Part shown: piece after piece, positions 1 to 56,208 of the stretch
Layout: each line of letters opens with the position of its first letter
How positions within the stretch are numbered: position 1 is the stretch's first letter
From: a virus
UHGV virus genome: UHGV-1374997
Strand: one strand, 5' to 3'
DNA: 64,000 nt
Program-made: the position numbers and the translations under genes
Notes under the pieces: model-generated
Told to the model about the DNA's origin: nothing
What the model saw: only the letters and a program-made list of their open reading frames with translations
Databases searched by the model: none

Positions 1-60
1 CTGTACCGTGCTCAAGCTGTACCGTGCTCAAGCTGTACCGTGCTCAAGCTGTACCATGCC
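1..60. repeat. 16-bp tandem direct repeat CTGTACCGTGCTCAAG, about 3.7 copies, truncated by the window edge
   Basis: Direct reading of positions 1-60; last copy degenerate (CTGTACCATGCC). Confidence 0.9.
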
Positions 61-3625: not shown

Positions 3626-4015
3626 GAGAAGTTTTTTACCTGCTTCACGTTGCCCTACAGAAACTATGACCTTGATTGCGGCGGCGGCCTGTCCTACGGC
3701 ACGAGCTTCAACGTCAAGCCAAGATTCGTGTGAGTTAGGTTCAAGTTCCCCGCCGCGTTTCTTGTGAAGCTCGGAAGGCGTGCAAAGCCGTTCGGCTATG
3801 TCAACATCATAGACAAGCCCACATCCGCCATAGGACCATTCCTGCCATGATCCCGCGCCATTAAGAAGCGTTCCACGGCAATTTTCAGGAGTAAGATCCT
3901 GATAATCCGGGATAGCCTCCAGCAGGTCCATAGCATAGCTCCGTACGCCCCTGCGCCATGCGGAGCGTTCGGCGGGAAGGGATTCAATAACCTTTCGAAT
4001 GTCAATAACTTTCAT
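3605..4015 (-). CDS. hypothetical protein (136 aa)
   Basis: ORF plus conserved TIR AAAGAGGTTATCACCATG. Confidence 0.7.
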   Translation of the reverse strand: MKVIDIRKVIESLPAERSAWRRGVRSYAMDLLEAIPDYQDLTPENCRGTLLNGAGSWQEWSYGGCGLVYDVDIAERLCTPSELHKKRGGELEPNSHESWLDVEARAVGQAAAAIKVIVSVGQREAGKKLLLTVSPF

Positions 4016-4036
4016 GGTGATAACCTCTTTGTTGTT

Positions 4037-4065
4037 TCGTTGAAATCAATCTACCGATTTTCTAT
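4037..4065 (-). promoter_or_regulatory. early promoter TTGACA-N17-TAGATT (minus strand)
   Basis: rc of 4037-4065 gives TTGACAgaaaaatagaaaatcggTAGATT. Confidence 0.55.
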
Positions 4066-4249
4066 TTTTCTGTCAACAAAAAATTCTGATTTTTTAGAAA
4101 AAGATTCTAGCGAAAAAAGGGGAGATCACTATGGCAGTAAAGGCGACCGTGAGCACGACACGAGATAGAGCTACGCTTGCGTTACGCTTGAAAGATAGCT
4201 TGCTTATGGCAGATCCTTTATACATGGTAGCCCCTTTTTTCCGCGTGAT

Positions 4250-4579
4250 TTACAGATAGGAGACAGCGTTGTGAAGGGCAGCAAAAGCTACGCACGGCAA
4301 CGCCATGAATCCGCACATATGAATAACGCTGTTCAGGAAGCCAAGGAAATTCGTATTTTCGGACACTCCGATAATACGCCGCATGACTTCCGAAATACTT
4401 TTTCCGGAAATTCCCCTAAGTCCTCCGCCGCCTACTACAACATAAACGCGGGACTTGACGCCTACGCGACGCGATTCAATGCGAACGCCTGTCCTTTTCA
4501 GGGTAAAATTCGCAAAAGAGAGGGACTTAGAGCAAAAAGGAGCGGAAAGGTAAATACGGCAAGCGGTCGTGAGCTTCAT
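4250..4579 (-). CDS. hypothetical protein (109 aa); antisense plus-strand ORFs with SD also exist here
   Basis: Conserved early TIR AAAGAGGTTATTAAAATG and own promoter favour the minus strand; protein low-complexity (GGGG run). Confidence 0.5.
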   Translation of the reverse strand: MKLTTACRIYLSAPFCSKSLSFANFTLKRTGVRIESRRVGVKSRVYVVVGGGGLRGISGKSISEVMRRIIGVSENTNFLGFLNSVIHMCGFMALPCVAFAALHNAVSYL

Positions 4580-4621
4580 TTTAATAACCTCTTTTTGTGG
4601 TTTGTGTGAACCCGTAAGATC

Positions 4622-4650
4622 AATCTATCCTTGCGGGCTCACACTGTCAA
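4622..4650 (-). promoter_or_regulatory. early promoter TTGACA-N17-TAGATT (minus strand)
   Basis: rc of 4622-4650 gives TTGACAgtgtgagcccgcaaggaTAGATT. Confidence 0.55.
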
Positions 4651-4710
4651 GCGATTTTTAGATATTTTTTTTTTGGATTATCCCTTGTACCCCTACCCCC
4701 GCCCAAAAAC

Positions 4711-4806
4711 TTTAGCTCAGGTCAATATCCCCGCGTCGCTTGAAAATGTTAGCTCAGGTCAATATCCCCGCGTCGCTTGAAAATTTTAGCTCAGGTCAAT
4801 ATCCCC
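4711..4806. repeat. 37-bp tandem direct repeat TTAGCTCAGGTCAATATCCCCGCGTCGCTTGAAAAT(G/T), 2.6 copies
   Basis: Direct reading; copies differ only at the junction base; third copy truncated. Confidence 0.9.
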
Positions 4807-4824
4807 ACCACGTGGAAACCGCTA

Positions 4825-5973
4825 TTATTTTTGAAGAATAAAAGAAACTCTTTCAAGTCTGCACTGGTTCTTTCCTTTGTAGTCGTCATGAGCCTTGACT
4901 TTCGCCTTTTTGATAGTGTACGTGCCGCCTTCTTCTACATCGGGGAAGGTAGAGGTCTTCCAGACGAAAGGAACGCCCGCGCTTGACTTCATGATAAAGA
5001 TGTGCTGTTCGCCGTACATGCCTTCAAAAGTGAATATCTTTTCAATGGTGACTTCCTCGTTAGCAACAATCGTGCCAATGGCGGGAAATTCTACGGTGAT
5101 TTTTTCTTCCGTCTTTTCTTCCAGCTTCTTAGTGTCAGAAGCCTTGCGGATATCAGCAAGAGCGCCGCGAATGCCCGCCGCGATAAAGCCGAACACGCGC
5201 TTTTCGCAGCGGCCCGAGCTTATGATCCGGAAAACATTTTCCTGATAGTCTCCCCTACGTTCTGAATTTTTAATAAATTCAATAGCTTTAAGAGCTTGTT
5301 CGGTATGCTCCGCCGTAACTGTGAAGTCGTAATCACGGGGAAAAGAGCGGTAATGATCGTCGACAAAATCCATGATCTTAGCTGCCGTGCTTCCCGGAGT
5401 GTTAGATTTAACGAAACCGAAGTCCGAGATCATCTTAACAGCTATTGCGCAGATCTCCACAGTAGCATAGTGAGGATCGCTTGCATAATGACCGCCATTG
5501 TCAGAATCCCCAAGAATTCCGGAATTTTCCGCGAAAAATTCGAGCGCGCCCGCTTCCTTTCCCAGAAAATCGATAATGCAAGACGTTCCCACCTGAATAA
5601 TCTTTCCGGCGGCGTCGGAAAGCAGGATGGTCTTAGAACGCTTCCTTTTCGTCCCGCAGTGATCGCAGGTCTTGCGGTCGGCAAAAGGAGTCAGATCAAC
5701 GTCTTCCGTAAAGGCGGGGTTACGGAAGATAAGGCCGCCGCTCGCATGGTCGACCACGGCGGCGAAAGTATAACCGGGAATCGCGGGGTATACGCCGTCT
5801 ACATGAAACTCCACAAAATCCTCATATTCGTAAGTGCCCTTTGTCCTTACGGAAAATTCACGTTCGACCGTGATAGAGAAAGCAGGATCCAATCCGCGCT
5901 TTTCGGCGCGGCGGTTCAGGCTTTCGACCTTTTCGACTATCTTGGAGAAAGTTGACTTGTGGCGGATAGGCAT
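4825..5973 (-). CDS. hypothetical protein (382 aa) with CDHCG zinc-finger-like motif
   Basis: Long ORF with conserved TIR TAAGAGGTTATCACTATG. Confidence 0.8.
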   Translation of the reverse strand: MPIRHKSTFSKIVEKVESLNRRAEKRGLDPAFSITVEREFSVRTKGTYEYEDFVEFHVDGVYPAIPGYTFAAVVDHASGGLIFRNPAFTEDVDLTPFADRKTCDHCGTKRKRSKTILLSDAAGKIIQVGTSCIIDFLGKEAGALEFFAENSGILGDSDNGGHYASDPHYATVEICAIAVKMISDFGFVKSNTPGSTAAKIMDFVDDHYRSFPRDYDFTVTAEHTEQALKAIEFIKNSERRGDYQENVFRIISSGRCEKRVFGFIAAGIRGALADIRKASDTKKLEEKTEEKITVEFPAIGTIVANEEVTIEKIFTFEGMYGEQHIFIMKSSAGVPFVWKTSTFPDVEEGGTYTIKKAKVKAHDDYKGKNQCRLERVSFILQK

Positions 5974-5995
5974 AGTGATAACCTCTTATAGTAAG

Positions 5996-6068
5996 ACATT
6001 CCTAGATTCCGATAAACCTTTTCCCTTGCCGTTGAAAAGACTTTATCGGAATCTAGGAATGTCGTCAA
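5996..6068 (-). promoter_or_regulatory. promoter TTGACG-N17-TAAAGT overlapping a 21-bp perfect inverted repeat (5996-6016 / 6042-6062)
   Basis: ACATTCCTAGATTCCGATAAA ... TTTATCGGAATCTAGGAATGT read directly; operator-like. Confidence 0.5.
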
Positions 6069-6083
6069 CAACTTTTTTGATTG

Positions 6084-6458
6084 TTATCTCCGATATTCCA
6101 TGCAGACAACGGGATCTGTCTCAACCGTCTCGAATCCCTCACTAGCGTAAAAGTCAACAAGATCTTCAAGGCTCATGCCATCGAAATCGGGAACCGCCGC
6201 AATCTTCAAGGGAAGGTGCGGAAACTTCCTCTTTACATAAGCTATCGCGGCTCGGAGCAAGACTCTGCCGTGTCCCTTGCGGCGATACTCAGGCCTTACA
6301 TGAAGATCAGAAACAAGTACGATATCCTGTTCTTCATAGCCATATAATGTGCTAGGGGCATCAATAATCTCTACCTCTTGAGAAATCATGCAATGACCAT
6401 ATTCCGACTCAAACACGATATCCCGTCCAGTATGCCCGGTCACAGTGATCTTACTCAT
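6084..6458 (-). CDS. GNAT family N-acetyltransferase
   Basis: Acetyl-CoA-binding motif RRKGHGRVLLRAAIAYV; SD GGAGGG upstream of MSKITV start. Confidence 0.8.
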   Translation of the reverse strand: MSKITVTGHTGRDIVFESEYGHCMISQEVEIIDAPSTLYGYEEQDIVLVSDLHVRPEYRRKGHGRVLLRAAIAYVKRKFPHLPLKIAAVPDFDGMSLEDLVDFYASEGFETVETDPVVCMEYRR

Positions 6459-6490
6459 AAAAATTCCCTCCATGCGATTCGTTTAAAGAG

Positions 6491-6519
6491 ACTCTATGCA
6501 AATACTAAATCACTGTCAA
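6491..6519 (-). promoter_or_regulatory. early promoter TTGACA-N17-TAGAGT (minus strand) for the GNAT gene
   Basis: rc of 6491-6519. Confidence 0.5.
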
Positions 6520-6630
6520 GCGGATCTATGAAAGAATCGAAAAGAAAAAATATTCGTGCATTCATATATTATATAAGGTATTGCAATTACCATGCCATAA
6601 TATTGGGATAGCTATTCTACGATGATCCCA

Positions 6631-6750
6631 AGTCAATGACACCTGATGACCATCAATGACAGTAGTTGACTGTAGATGACGATTACTGACGATCGTTGAC
6701 AGTCTGTGACGCTTGTTGACGGCTGTTTACGGTCGTTGACGACCGTGCAC
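6631..6750. repeat. 12 consecutive 10-bp units of form NNNNNNTGAC (11 of 12 end in TGAC/TTAC), exact 10-bp phasing
   Basis: agtcaaTGAC acctgaTGAC catcaaTGAC agtagtTGAC tgtagaTGAC gattacTGAC gatcgtTGAC agtctgTGAC gcttgtTGAC ggctgtTTAC ggtcgtTGAC gaccgtGCAC. Confidence 0.9.
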
Positions 6751-7010
6751 GGGGATTTTCAACGATTGTTCAAGAAATAACTATTAATATAATCAACTAC
6801 TTATAACTTGGCATAAGTCTTGCATAGATTGAGATTGGTTTGAGATTCTCCAATCATTTCAAGTATATGGGAGGGGGTAGGATCAAAGTGTACCGCATTC
6901 CGGTATATAGTACCGTCGTTGACTCAAAAAAACATTTTTTTCGATTTCTGAGCTTTTATCCGGTTGTAATTATTCATGTAAATTTTTTAAACGAAATTTT
7001 AATAAAACTA

Positions 7011-7039
7011 TTGACAAAAAATCGTTTATGGATTAAGAT
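7011..7039 (+). promoter_or_regulatory. promoter TTGACA-N17-TAAGAT upstream of terS
   Basis: Read directly; followed by SD AAGGAG and a TTG start. Confidence 0.55.
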
Positions 7040-7074
7040 TTTTACTAAATTTAATATAAAAAAGGAGAAAAACA

Positions 7075-7545
7075 TTGCGACGCCAAACAAAATCCATCGA
7101 AGCGCATAAGCAAGATGGTACATACAATTCTACGAAGCATGGAGTGGACGTTCCATTGGCGGAAGGACCGCTGAGGAAAATCAATTGGGACAAGATGTCC
7201 TCGGAAGACATTTATACTACGATTGCTGATGTTATCGCGCAGAAGGGACTTGACCATGCTGAATACTCTCTAGCTTTGGAACTCTTAGTTTATGCGGTGA
7301 ATAGGATGCTTAAACTCCGCAGGGATCTGAAAGCCCAAGGCGGCGAGACGTATATTACCCCGACAGGTATTCGGAAAAACAATCCTACAGCGAAACTTGT
7401 TATGGAAGCAGAGAAGCAAGTTGATACGCTCCTGCAAAGGTTTGGGCTTACGCCGGATTCTCGTAGCCGAGTAGCTAGGAAGAAGGGGGAACTTAATCTA
7501 GGGAGTGAAGATTCTTTCGGATCTCCGGAAGGTTTCTTCAATTAA
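7075..7545 (+). CDS. terS: phage terminase small subunit, P27 family
   Basis: 156 aa; C-terminal GLTPDSRSRV motif typical of P27-family TerS; TTG start with SD. Confidence 0.7.
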   Translation: MRRQTKSIEAHKQDGTYNSTKHGVDVPLAEGPLRKINWDKMSSEDIYTTIADVIAQKGLDHAEYSLALELLVYAVNRMLKLRRDLKAQGGETYITPTGIRKNNPTAKLVMEAEKQVDTLLQRFGLTPDSRSRVARKKGELNLGSEDSFGSPEGFFN

Positions 7546-7577
7546 ACCAATAATTTAAAAATATTTTAAAAAAGTAG

Positions 7578-7606
7578 TTGACAAATCAAAAAAGTTTCAC
7601 TATATT
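7578..7606 (+). promoter_or_regulatory. strong promoter TTGACA-N17-TATATT
   Basis: Read directly at 7578-7583 and 7601-7606. Confidence 0.6.
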
Positions 7607-7612
7607 CCTTTT

Positions 7613-7867
7613 CACGATGAGCGCATGAGCAGATGCAGACAGCATATTAAAGTTAAATACTATGATTATTTAAAACGGCATCTAGTTAAAACTCATACAC
7701 CGCTCATAATCATTTAGGTGCTTACAGCGACAAAAATTACACTTGCCTGTTAAGCAATAATGTAAAAGCACCTAGTTATTTAGATAAAGGTTCTCACAGC
7801 AACAACACAACCATTCATACTGGAAGTAGCGTCCACCAAAGGGCGCAGAACCTTGGAGAAAAAAATC
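7613..7867 (+). promoter_or_regulatory. about 255-nt structured 5' leader (nested helices 7618-7623/7701-7706, 7716-7723/7766-7773, 7788-7794/7847-7853 abutting the SD)
   Basis: Complementary segments identified by eye; function unknown. Confidence 0.35.
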
Positions 7868-17831: not shown

Positions 17832-18232
17832 TGTGGGATCAGTTGGAGCCTGTGATCACTATGTGGTGTGATCAGGACGAAGGCTATAAACTCTTGAAAT
17901 TTTTATTTAAAAAAATTCAACTGATCACAACTGATCACATTTTTCGAAAAAAGATAAACCATATTAATGAGTTGCAATTTTGTGATCAGTTGACACAGCT
18001 CAGGGGTGTCCCAAAGTTTCTTTATATGTGATCTATGGGGGAGGGGTATAGTGTTGCATATATGCAACATGGAAAGAAAGGAACATTTTTTCTTACATAG
18101 ACTTTCTATTTATACTGATCACATGATCACAAAATAAAAATATAGATATAAGTAATTGAAATAATAAAATAAAAAATGTGATCAGTTTGTGATCAGTTAA
18201 ACCGTTTGTGATCACTTCAACCGATCACACAC
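17832..18232. repeat. putative replication origin: about 14 copies of (T)GTGATCA(C/G) iterons in both orientations flanking an AT-rich core (18131-18176) and an 18-bp perfect palindrome TGTTGCATATATGCAACA (18052-18069)
   Basis: Direct reading of an 830-bp non-coding gap next to the primase gene. Confidence 0.6.
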
Positions 18233-41222: not shown

Positions 41223-42551
41223 ATGGGTTTTTTAAATATTTTCGATAACTTCCGAAAAAAGGACTCAGAATATAAATCGAATATGGATGATTCGTTCTTA
41301 AATTCGATTTCTGTTTCCGATTCCGGTACTCCCGTTACCACACGGACAGCACTTGATTGTTCTGTCGTCTTGGCTTGTGTTTCCGTTATTTCCAATGGTA
41401 TCGCTCAGGTTCCTTTTCGTTTGTATCAAAAAAAGGGAAATACTAGAAAGCCAGCGGAAAATCACCCATTGTATTGGCTTTTTGAGGAAGGCCCAAACCC
41501 ATATCAAAGCCAATTTGAATTTCGGGAGACTCTCGGCTTGCATCTCGCGCTGACTGGAGAGGCTTTCGTTTGGCTTGTAAGAGTACGTGGAGAGATTAAG
41601 GAGATGTATCCTTTCCCTCCCGGCATGGTTAATGTTCAGATGGATGAATCTGATTCTCTTGGGCTTCGGTCAAAATATTTTGTAACGACCGAAAACGGAC
41701 GATATATTGAAATCCCTGAAAAGGATATGTGGCATTTGAAGTGGAGAGGATACGATGTTATTCGTGGCCTGTCCCCTGTCAAACTGGCTAAAAATGCTAT
41801 TGGTCTTTCTTTGTCTTCGGATAAATATCTTGGAACATCTTTAAAGAATGGAGTTAAACCTTCCGGAATTCTTACCGCAGTAAATGACTTGACAGAGGAA
41901 CAGAGAAAGCGTATTCGTGAGACGTGGGAGAGAGAATATAGCGGTTCAAGAAATGCCAATAAGACAATTATCTTGAGCAACGATTTTCGATATCAGCAGA
42001 TGTCCATGACTAATCAGGACGCTCAGTTTGTTGAGAATCGTCAATTCCAAGTTGCGGATCTTTGTCGAAATTGGGGAGTGATGCCAATCATGGTCTTTGA
42101 TTATATGAAGACCACAACGTACGCATCTTCCGAACAGCTTTTCTTGCAGCATAAAATTCATACGCTTGATCCGTGGTATCGGCGTATTGAAACGAGTGCC
42201 AATAAATTCTTGCTCACAGAAGAACAGCGTAGAAAGGAAGGTCTGTATTTCAAGTTCATGGATGATGGATTGCTTCGTGGCGACGCGAAAAGCCGTGCCG
42301 AAGTTTACCGCACTGCCATCAATTCCGGGTATATGACTCCTAATGAAGTTCGAGCCCTGTCTGAAATGAATCCCGTCAAGGGCGGCGATGAGCTATTTAT
42401 GCAGGGGGCTATGAGGACTGTAGAATCCATTGTTAAGGAAGCGGACGTAATGGACGCACAGATTCCTCAATCAGGTAGTACAATTCCGAAAAAACCTAAA
42501 AACGGAGAGACGAACAATGACGATCAACGGAATGACGAAAACAATGAGTAA
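41223..42551 (+). CDS. portal protein (HK97 family)
   Basis: 442 aa, position ahead of protease and capsid; HK97-portal-like blocks. Confidence 0.85.
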   Translation: MGFLNIFDNFRKKDSEYKSNMDDSFLNSISVSDSGTPVTTRTALDCSVVLACVSVISNGIAQVPFRLYQKKGNTRKPAENHPLYWLFEEGPNPYQSQFEFRETLGLHLALTGEAFVWLVRVRGEIKEMYPFPPGMVNVQMDESDSLGLRSKYFVTTENGRYIEIPEKDMWHLKWRGYDVIRGLSPVKLAKNAIGLSLSSDKYLGTSLKNGVKPSGILTAVNDLTEEQRKRIRETWEREYSGSRNANKTIILSNDFRYQQMSMTNQDAQFVENRQFQVADLCRNWGVMPIMVFDYMKTTTYASSEQLFLQHKIHTLDPWYRRIETSANKFLLTEEQRRKEGLYFKFMDDGLLRGDAKSRAEVYRTAINSGYMTPNEVRALSEMNPVKGGDELFMQGAMRTVESIVKEADVMDAQIPQSGSTIPKKPKNGETNNDDQRNDENNE

Positions 42552-42720
42552 AGATCAAGCCACCCTTTCTAAGCTTATTTATTTCAAGAAACGTGATTTG
42601 GATTGGGTAGAGGAGCTTTTGCGGCAAGGCGTCGACCCAACCTGTACTGAATATGAACTCATTAAAAAAGAGTTGGCGGAACTGGAGAGCGAATTTAAAG
42701 GAAATTCGGAGAAAAAATAA
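42544..42720 (+). CDS. small hypothetical protein between portal and protease
   Basis: ORF 42517..42720; ATG overlapping portal stop. Confidence 0.4.
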   Translation: MSKDQATLSKLIYFKKRDLDWVEELLRQGVDPTCTEYELIKKELAELESEFKGNSEKK

Positions 42721-43712: not shown

Positions 43713-43858
43713 GTTCTTTTTAAAAAAGGGGTTGACAAAAATGTAAAAATATGATTTACACTATCAAAGTCAATATTGGCAATGCCTCAGTTCGGGATGA
43801 ATGGGAGGTGCTTTTTACTTTATCTATTTTAAAAATCTCGAAAAGAGGAAGTATTTTT

Positions 43859-54945: not shown

Positions 54946-56208
54946 GGCGCACCTTGACCGGAATTTTTACTCTGAAAGTATCTCTTAACATTTCCCTATA
55001 AACTGAGTATAATTTAATCATGAAAAGAATGCAAGCATATAAATTCCAGTTACGTCCTAAAGCCAAGCAAGCAAATCTCATGTTGGGTTTTGCCGGATGC
55101 TGTCGCTTTGTATGGAATAAGGCGCTTGCATTAGAGAAAGAAACCTATCAAGAGGAGGGCAAACGTCTTGGGTATTATAAACTTGCTGGTTTGCTCAAAG
55201 ATTGGAAAAAGGAAGAAGAAACATCTTTTCTTGCTAGAGCACACTCTCAGATATTGCAGCAGGTACTAAAAGATCTTGATCGGGCTTACAAAAATTTTTT
55301 TGAGAAGCGTGCGGATTTTCCACGATTCAAGAAGAAGGGTGCCCACAATACCTTTCGATATCCGCAAGGCTTCAAGTTGGATGAAGGAAATAGTCGCGTT
55401 TATCTTCCCAAAATAGGTTGGGTGCGTTACAGAAAAAGCAGGGCTATAGAAGGGACGCTAAAGCAAGTAGCGGTTTCTCTTTCTGCCGGAGAGTGGTATG
55501 TCTCCATCCTGACTGAGAGGGAAGTAGTTGAACATATCCATCCCTCTCAAAGCTCTATTGGTATTGATATGGGTGTTGCCCATTTTGCAATGCTCTCTGA
55601 TGGAAGCACAATTGAACCGTTGAACAGCTTTCGCAAATATGAAAAGAAGTTGGCAAAACTGCAACGCAAACAAGCGAGATGCAAAAAGTTTTCCGCCAAC
55701 TGGCAAAAGGTCAAATCACGCATTCAACGCTTGCACCTCCACATAGCTAATGCTCGCAAGGACTTTTTGCACAAGGCAAGCACAATGATTAGCAAAAACC
55801 ACGCTGTTGTTGTACTTGAAGACTTGAAAGTGCGGAATATGTCCAGCTCAAAGACCGGAGGAAAACGCAAGTCAGGATTGAATAAATCTATATTGGATCA
55901 AGGGTGGTTTGAGTTCCGGCGGCAACTGTCTTACAAGCTGGCATGGATGGGTGGATCTTTGACCGCAATTCCTCCTCAGTATACCAGCCAGACCTGTAGC
56001 CGTTGCGGATGTGTAGATAAACAAAACAGACAAACGCAAGCCAAGTTTAAATGTATAGCTTGCGGATTTGAGATTAACGCCGATCACAATGCGGCGTTGA
56101 ATATCTTGGCGGCAGGGCTTGCCGTTACAGCCTGTGGAGCGGGAAAGGCTCAAGCGCCCGCGTTGAATCAGGAACCCGCCTATAGTTTGGCCTAATTGGG
56201 CTTTACTG
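54946..56208 (+). mobile_element. IS200/IS605-family TnpB-only insertion element (boundaries approximate)
   Basis: 74-bp left end, tnpB, about 13-bp right end before the triplicated target segment. Confidence 0.55.
55020..56195 (+). CDS. tnpB: TnpB (OrfB) RNA-guided nuclease, IS605 family
   Basis: RuvC-like motifs and C-terminal zinc finger CSRCGCVDKQNRQTQAKFKCIACGFEINADHNAALNI. Confidence 0.85.
   Translation: MKRMQAYKFQLRPKAKQANLMLGFAGCCRFVWNKALALEKETYQEEGKRLGYYKLAGLLKDWKKEEETSFLARAHSQILQQVLKDLDRAYKNFFEKRADFPRFKKKGAHNTFRYPQGFKLDEGNSRVYLPKIGWVRYRKSRAIEGTLKQVAVSLSAGEWYVSILTEREVVEHIHPSQSSIGIDMGVAHFAMLSDGSTIEPLNSFRKYEKKLAKLQRKQARCKKFSANWQKVKSRIQRLHLHIANARKDFLHKASTMISKNHAVVVLEDLKVRNMSSSKTGGKRKSGLNKSILDQGWFEFRRQLSYKLAWMGGSLTAIPPQYTSQTCSRCGCVDKQNRQTQAKFKCIACGFEINADHNAALNILAAGLAVTACGAGKAQAPALNQEPAYSLA

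Follow-up and report, generated by a model that had tools for sequence, protein, structure and literature searches.

A phased TGAC array of variable copy number beside the cos site of an uncultured gut phage lineage: a putative control cassette

Why does a large tailed phage carry TGAC at every tenth position over 120 bp of intergenic DNA next to its small terminase gene? The array lies within the window analyzed here, i.e., the whole stretch of 64,000 nucleotides, which corresponds to positions 1–64000 of an 88,380-bp human-gut metagenome contig from a phage without a close isolate (best capsid match 34% identity). The preliminary description of this DNA offered three candidates, namely a pac site wrapped around a ring of the adjacent TerS, an initiator-binding array, and a -35-like sponge for RNA polymerase or sigma factor. 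The first of these is probably wrong, and in what we consider the best explanation the array is not the primary recognition site of TerS. The reading that we favor, tentatively, is a putative phased binding platform, i.e., a cassette that would have an upstream control or architectural role for a divergent pair of promoter-like elements in a control region at the cos end.

Sequence and predicted shape of the array

The units (Table 1) are, in order, AGTCAATGAC, ACCTGATGAC, CATCAATGAC, AGTAGTTGAC, TGTAGATGAC, GATTACTGAC, GATCGTTGAC, AGTCTGTGAC, GCTTGTTGAC, GGCTGTTTAC, GGTCGTTGAC, and GACCGTGCAC. TGAC starts at nine consecutive positions 10 bp apart (6637, 6647 and so on to 6717), followed by a TTAC, another TGAC (6737) and a GCAC. 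Read from the sequence, the unit endings are TGAC in 10 of the 12, TTAC in one and GCAC in one, a recount that agrees with the 11 of 12 decamers previously reported to end in TGAC or TTAC. The five gtTGAC units counted in the same description are four; a fifth GTTGAC (6918–6923) is located at the cos site. The tetramer TGAC occurs 215 times in the 64 kb (0.0034 per position), with 10 copies in the array vs. a maximum of three in any other 120-bp window; no second chain (at least two TGAC at exact 10-bp spacing) was found elsewhere on the plus strand of the window, and the chance expectation for chains of nine or more is ~3.5e−18. TRF reported periods of 10 and 20 bp for the array, in agreement with the repeat finder, and the period-10 power was no outlier in the Fourier spectrum of base composition, i.e., the signal resides specifically in the TGAC core.

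Table 1 Coordinates of the array, the cos site and neighboring features (positions refer to the window)
Feature	Position	Strand	Description
GNAT acetyltransferase gene	6084..6473	-	First gene of the leftward operon
Sigma70-like promoter, leftward GNAT operon	6491..6519	-	TTGACA, 17-nt spacer, TAGAGT; conserved in L237
Sigma54-type -24/-12 element, left	6582..6597	-	TGGCATGGTAATTGCA; faces left, toward the GNAT operon; left edge of the replaceable cassette
TGAC array	6631..6750	+	12 head-to-tail 10-bp units, logo RnYYRW-TGAC
Inverted array-unit copy	6759..6769	-	Reverse complement ACAATCGTTGA, cf. unit 7 GATCGTTGAC; from a find_repeats-type repeat search and alignment
Second inverted copy	6788..6801	-	Reverse complement AGTAGTTGATTATA; 9/9 bases identical to unit 4
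IHF-consensus match	6791..6803		AATCAACTACTTA; the sole one in the gap; overlapped by the second inverted copy
Sigma54-type -24/-12 element, right	6809..6824	+	TGGCATAAGTCTTGCA; faces right, toward cos and terS; right edge of the cassette
G-rich conserved block	6869..6881	+	GGGAGGGGGTAGG; 33–45 bp left of the bottom-strand cut; kept even in L232
Inferred cohesive end	6914..6922	.	CGTCGTTGA; 9 nt, 3′ overhang, from contig ends
A7-CA-T7 tract	6926..6941	+	Directly right of the cut (+4 to +19); nearly invariant in relatives
Sigma70-like promoter, terS	7011..7039	+	TTGACA, 17-nt spacer, TAAGAT
terS	7075..7545	+	Terminase_4 (P27-type), 156 aa; Pfam E = 3.6e−13; phrog_83

As stated before, no ORF explains the array (none of at least 40 aa overlaps 6612–6839). 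The AT-rich character ascribed to the gap between the GNAT gene and terS applies to the gap as a whole (34% GC) and to the flanks of the array (33–36%), but not to the array itself, which forms an island of 48% GC. Rfam searches of the window and of 3900–7100 returned tRNAs only, and a DNA search of 6000–8000 against 50,697 phage records gave no match.

An exact 10-bp phase had been taken to put all sites on one face of the DNA. On DNA of 10.5 bp per turn, however, a 10.0-bp repeat rotates the sites by a computed –189 degrees or so over 11 intervals, and a one-face alignment therefore requires bound DNA that is either overwound or coiled along a left-handed superhelix. A wedge model places the array within the top 0.2% of 120-bp windows for predicted curvature.

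Genome ends and packaging genes

At least seven contigs from six datasets (L003, L004, L005, and L239–L242) start exactly at position 6923 (CTCAAAAAAAC...). In L238 an Illumina adapter (...CTCTTCCGATCT) is joined to CAAAAAAAC at window position 6925, and the chimeric contig L001 switches to unrelated high-GC DNA exactly at 6923. On the other side, L141 and L042 (the other end of contig 141352) stop at 6913 (...GGTATATAGTAC), and L140 and L143 stop at 6908, five bases short of this point. The continuous sequence TAGTAC-CGTCGTTGA-CTCAAAAAAAC is read through in more than 10 contigs, the window included. The bases 6914–6922 are missing at both ends of contig 141352 (assembly ends, not read termini), and since end repair removes 3′ overhangs, we infer 3′ cohesive ends from their absence at both linear ends. 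The cuts would fall at 6922/6923 on the top strand and at 6913/6914 on the bottom strand, giving a cos site with 3′ ends of about 9 nt. The physical genome ends occupy one unique sequence position, in keeping with a cos site. The suggestion that the array is a pac site of TerS was right in so far as the array adjoins the packaging site, with contig ends mapping 163–172 bp to its right (163 bp to the bottom-strand cut), but this site is a cos and not a headful pac. The array is located left of the cut and terS starts 152 bp to the right of it, on the opposite side; in the mature chromosome the array belongs to the right end and terS to the left end.

Several short sequences surround the cuts. 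Of 13 bases, 12 are shared between the array segment TACGGTCGTTGAC (6728–6740) and the cos core TACCGTCGTTGAC (6911–6923), and the top strand is cut inside a TGAC. The G-rich block is followed after 6–8 nt by a start codon (within 6869–6900), and the short ORF that begins there crosses the cos cut in a frame that is unconserved in relatives.

The P27-type assignment of the adjacent TerS stands, with 50.2 bits against PF05119 (gathering cut-off 24.7 bits); its nearest relatives outside the lineage share 33–37% identity. A TerL (PF03354/PF20441) and an HNH nuclease are encoded in the relatives L147 and L156, roughly 9–11 kb past the window end, and on the linear contig 141352 they are found at ~66 kb (TerL) and ~68 kb (HNH), not adjacent to cos, which means that the packaging genes are scattered; the contig of the window itself was read up to 74 kb. 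The TerL-HNH segment is inverted in one of these two relatives compared with the other. The lineage as a whole encodes TerS (in the window) together with TerL and the HNH nuclease (in L147 and L156), and 3′ cos ends fit such a TerS/TerL/HNH system. The cos site and the probable end structure are hereby located for an uncultured gut phage lineage of ~88 kb, with an unusual layout in which terS stands alone at one end and the genes for TerL, HNH, and the portal protein are at a great distance from it.

One close comparison is HK97, which also combines a PF03354/PF20441 TerL and an HNH nuclease with an A-tract just downstream of the cut, and whose 9–10-nt 3′ cohesive ends are of the kind that is putative here. 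Unlike here, its HNH and TerL genes flank cos (vs. ~66–68 kb away), and it has one 15-bp site and no repeat array. The HK97 TerS binds this single A-tract site 15–29 bp from the cut on the terS side, and it threads DNA through its ring instead of wrapping it (PMC11331095). An AlphaFold model of our TerS (pLDDT 87) contains no helix-turn-helix DNA-binding domain, and its top PDB matches are HK97 TerS chains, albeit weak ones (E about 0.5, TM 0.66 on target). We rejected the HK97 protein as a homologue from the same Pfam family, as HK97 gp1 (8POP) has no Terminase_4 match and an hhalign probability of 0.1; with no profile similarity between the two proteins, HK97 serves for this TerS as an analogy only, in which a weak fold resemblance remains. 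By analogy with the HK97 A-tract site alone, the A7-CA-T7 tract is a candidate TerS site.

Array alleles, an array-less variant and flanking elements

Related metagenome contigs contain 14 array alleles of 8–21 units (81–209 bp in total, in steps of 10). Across their 41 distinct units, information amounts to 1.0–1.7 bits per TGAC position vs. 0.2–0.8 bits in the spacer, and between the window and L007 ~4% of core positions differ vs. ~19% of spacer positions. Phase is maintained by compensation, a 9-bp unit always being followed by an 11-bp unit within two units. Copy number changes by block duplication; L139, for example, has a 30-bp block in triplicate, as L008 has one of 50 bp. The array is confined to one narrow lineage, in which near-identical phages hold 0, 8–13 or 21 phased units beside one cos. 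The expectation that close relatives share the phased array was borne out by the 14 alleles, all in phase, but not by L237, where it is missing.

L237 is homologous to the window up to 6609 and again from 6808 onward, i.e., 6610–6807 are exactly replaced. Both -24/-12 elements, the right cos flank and the A/T tract are retained, and the cos core differs by 3 nt. The TerS of L237 is identical to the cluster representative P0001, which is 99% identical to the TerS of the window and is the exact TerS of the array-bearing contigs L233–L236. The loss of the array is accompanied by the loss of a 382-aa gene and of the GNAT gene, the latter being present in every array-bearing relative examined. Between these two genes, a long inverted repeat or hairpin (5978–6081) aligns both ways in relatives. 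A second phage, L232 (87% TerS), has the same cos core and no array in the 199 bp that its sequence covers left of cos. The array is thus not found wherever the same TerS and cos occur. These alleles amount to a natural experiment, with 0, 8–13 and 21 phased units at one cos and an array-less phage that shares its TerS with array-bearing relatives, and they make packaging, transcription, and replication roles separable by simple comparisons.

L234 keeps the array next to a different cos core, CGTCATGGA, which shows that the resemblance between cos and array units does not co-vary. A binding protein shared by the cos core and the array unit, argued from this resemblance, was considered and rejected for the same reason.

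The order of the surrounding elements is a sigma70-like promoter (left), a sigma54-type element (left), the array, a sigma54-type element (right), cos, and the sigma70-like promoter of terS. The two -24/-12 elements match the degenerate consensus TGGCAY-N5-TTGCW with correct spacing and in divergent orientation. Both are retained in all relatives, where the two blocks are conserved and the 5-nt spacer between them varies; additional copies are present in L237, including an inverted one, and a single inverted copy in L232. Perfect matches number four in the window vs. ~0.1 expected (an expectation derived from a shuffle figure), and since two of the four fall in coding sequence, the pattern can arise without promoter function. 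From both predicted start points of these elements the array extends over about –60 to –205. The IHF-consensus match is located between the array and the right element, and both inverted unit copies are inside a block kept in every array-bearing relative. When the conserved block on the right-hand side, TTTTCAACGATTGTTCAA, was sought in other contexts, all matches were chance ones in unrelated coding DNA.

Candidate functions of the array

As the exact swap of 6610–6807 in L237 took place between the -24/-12 elements, the cassette behaves as a regulatory module. In the control reading, the array would consist of weak protein-binding units in helical phase whose copy number varies. They would form a replaceable cassette in the central, promoter-free part of the control region, at the right end of the mature chromosome. 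A DNA-binding protein of phage or host origin might bind cooperatively, with one subunit on each 10-bp unit, and because the repeat measures 10.0 bp and not 10.5 bp, DNA in this complex would be overwound or wrapped left-handed, resulting in a bent or wrapped nucleoprotein structure. Such a structure could act as a shared enhancer- or operator-like element for both outward-facing promoter-like elements and would, as a by-product, shape the DNA ~165 bp from cos. The constrained core, the kept phase, the divergent -24/-12 pair, the exact swap in L237, the IHF match, and the predicted curvature all argue for this account. The extra and inverted -24/-12 copies of L237 are odd for promoters, on the other hand, and the proximity of cos and the 12/13 match between TACGGTCGTTGAC and TACCGTCGTTGAC point to packaging. 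No enrichment of sigma54-like elements was seen near TGAC arrays of other phages.

The layout resembles a sigma54 enhancer with IHF and -24/-12 elements, in that TGGCAY-N5-TTGCW elements lie 60–200 bp off and one IHF match precedes the right element. The sigma54 enhancers known so far consist of inverted repeats that bind dimers of an AAA+ activator, and not of 12 direct repeats; the units here are direct repeats, with just two inverted copies, both outside the array, and the annotated phage genes include neither a DNA-binding regulator nor a sigma54 activator (PF00158). A weak hint in favor of the sigma54 view comes from the host side, as the closest relatives of a TnpB gene in the tail region (70–76% identity) occur in gut Desulfovibrio and Mailhella, which points weakly to Desulfovibrionaceae, a group that makes heavy use of sigma54. 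The phage tRNAs read AT-rich codons. Type II ParR-parC systems (R1, pSK41) and ribbon-helix-helix operators have arrays of about ten direct 10–11-bp repeats bound cooperatively, with one dimer per repeat, to form a superhelical filament that also controls flanking promoters; unlike these, the present array comes with no par genes in the annotated parts of the genome and stands in a phage cos/control region. Literature searches on phased repeats at cos sites and on the use of sigma54 by phages yielded no direct parallel. If the -24/-12 elements are active, the locus would represent a rare phage control region of sigma54-type promoters straddling cos.

A less likely alternative is that the array is an accessory packaging element that belongs to an extended cos, placed like cosQ or cosB. 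It would be bound or wrapped by TerS, terminase, or the HNH nuclease, or would act as a brake of curved DNA or bound protein that the motor encounters right before the cut, and it would improve cos recognition without being strictly required. The distance of 163–172 bp to the mapped cuts speaks for such a role, but the array is across the cut from terS, and the sole mapped analogous site, that of HK97, is 15–29 bp away on the terS side (PMC11331095). The 12/13 resemblance to the cos core and the top-strand cut within a TGAC are further points in its favor, although L234 keeps the array beside another cos core. The lineage has the TerS, the PF03354/PF20441 TerL, and the HNH nuclease typical of 3′-cos packaging, and curvature is predicted for the array; L237, however, has the same TerS and right cos flank and no array. 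The wrapping around a TerS ring that had been proposed was not supported, as 8–21 copies are at odds with a ring of fixed stoichiometry, the same TerS occurs without an array, and the TerS model has no helix-turn-helix domain. Some TGAC arrays with 10-bp spacing in IMG/VR adjoin terminase genes, but the surroundings of 74 related TerL genes, 631 kb in all, contained no phased 4-mer arrays.

The cos region of lambda (cosQ-cosN-cosB plus R sites and an IHF site) offers a parallel for repeated protein-binding sites and a bend that flank a staggered cut next to a terminase gene. It differs in that its R sites, three in number and 16 bp long, are located on the terS (Nu1) side in mixed orientation and its ends are 5′ and 12 nt long, vs. 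8–21 direct units of 10 bp across the cut from terS, putative 3′ ends, and an array that is dispensable in a natural variant. The SRL and SRR regions of T7 consist of about ten short direct repeats by the genome termini, upstream of early promoters, and their function is unclear; unlike the exact 10-bp units beside cos described here, these heptamers are irregularly spaced and flank a direct terminal repeat.

A rather unlikely variant is that the array forms a sequence track read by the packaging machinery, presenting TGAC every 10 bp over the last 170–290 bp before cos to terminase, TerS, or the HNH nuclease. Such a track might slow or register the motor for the staggered cut, or nucleate a wrapped terminase-DNA complex at initiation. 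If so, no earlier case of a natural, periodic DNA signal addressed to a terminase would precede it, and the alleles of 0, 8, 12, and 21 units would constitute a dose series for wrapping vs. threading. That the array has some function outside the explanations listed in this section is unlikely.

The initiator array proposed earlier would make the units replication-origin iterons, bound by an initiator such as the 867-aa primase-helicase, which would melt the AT-rich flanks. Phased direct repeats with flanks of 33–36% GC are typical origin anatomy, and iteron-type origins (lambda ori and the arrays next to DnaB in IMG/VR) share with this locus phased direct repeats, curved DNA (predicted here), and AT-rich flanks; an origin function for such arrays has precedent. 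What makes it quite unlikely here is that the array is neither in nor next to a replication gene (the primase, helicases, and polymerase are at 18–33 kb, 12–26 kb off), that it is missing from the close relative L237, and that GC skew tracks transcription and leaves no mark at the array. A better origin candidate is the repeat-rich 830-bp gap by the primase gene: a cluster of direct repeats containing TGATCA (17918–18223) lies in this gap, upstream of the primase-helicase gene, and is a candidate origin or operator.

In IMG/VR, at least 120 stretches contain five TGAC spaced by 10 bp, most of them simple tandem repeats. The variable-spacer arrays (35 loci) have mixed neighbors that include DnaB and terminase genes; DnaB_C was found in 6 of the 150 neighboring ORFs scanned at these loci, with L019 and L092 confirmed individually. 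Given such heterogeneous neighbors, the TGAC/10-bp motif alone is not diagnostic. Among the IMG/VR sequences, six high-GC ones (L019, L047, L063, L077, L092, and L113) carry TGACnnnnCG arrays of 10-bp period with variable spacers and a recurrent TCACGTTTTG unit; those of L019 and L092, which adjoin DnaB-type helicase genes, look like origin iterons.

It is improbable that the array is an essentially neutral minisatellite, i.e., a stretch prone to slippage and recombination, perhaps derived from a duplication of the cos flank, with no dedicated binding partner. The rapid copy-number change by block duplication (L139 and L008), the complete loss in L237, and the restriction to one narrow lineage would suit such an origin, but the TGAC core is conserved while the spacers diverge within and between alleles, and this constraint makes neutrality unlikely; the compensated 9-bp and 11-bp phase slips and the inverted unit copies in a conserved block also speak against it. 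Very improbable are the -35-like sponge of the preliminary description, which has nothing in its favor except TTGAC in 4 of the 12 units (the other 8 read differently, and the units lack accompanying -10 elements), and a ParR-parC- or TubR-tubC-type centromere, which would share the parC-type anatomy of 10–11-bp direct-repeat arrays but for which no ParM, ParA, TubZ, or ParR-like gene was detected with Pfam and PHROG in the annotated parts of the genome.

Past terS, the genome encodes a Ro/TROVE-like protein, six tRNAs, an RNA ligase, RtcB, a primase, helicases, and PolA, followed by structural genes (portal at 41223, protease at 42720, capsid at 43751, then tail genes). The Ro/TROVE-like gene (DUF2828/DUF7788, phrog_850; 7853–9389) is split into overlapping ORFs of 194 aa and 332 aa; L233, L235, and L238 have it undivided, with 475–506 aa, and the split in the window could reflect a frameshift, gene decay to a pseudogene, or an error of sequencing. 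Located by the tRNAs, RtcB, and the RNA ligase, it forms with them what resembles an RNA-repair set. At 9400–9475, ARAGORN predicts a tRNA-Phe with the unusual anticodon AAA, whereas the Rfam tRNA model (gathering score) reports the other five tRNAs and not this one. Two TnpB (IS605-type OrfB) genes are present in and after the tail module (55020–56195; L145 17611–18786). Left of the array, a stretch at 4250–4609 that is conserved in relatives, including L237, has ORFs of 109 aa and 112 aa on opposite strands and no Pfam or Rfam match, and beside it is a 37-bp tandem repeat (4712–4806, 2.6 copies, 98% identity). The contig itself begins inside a 16-bp tandem repeat (window 1–59; CTGTACCGTGCTCAAG, 3.7 copies, 4.7 in the relative L149), and in L149 a 37-bp repeat of 4.2 copies follows ~500 bp further (the two repeats of L149 at 10879–10953 and 11432–11588), both repeats being downstream of a GP88-like gene.
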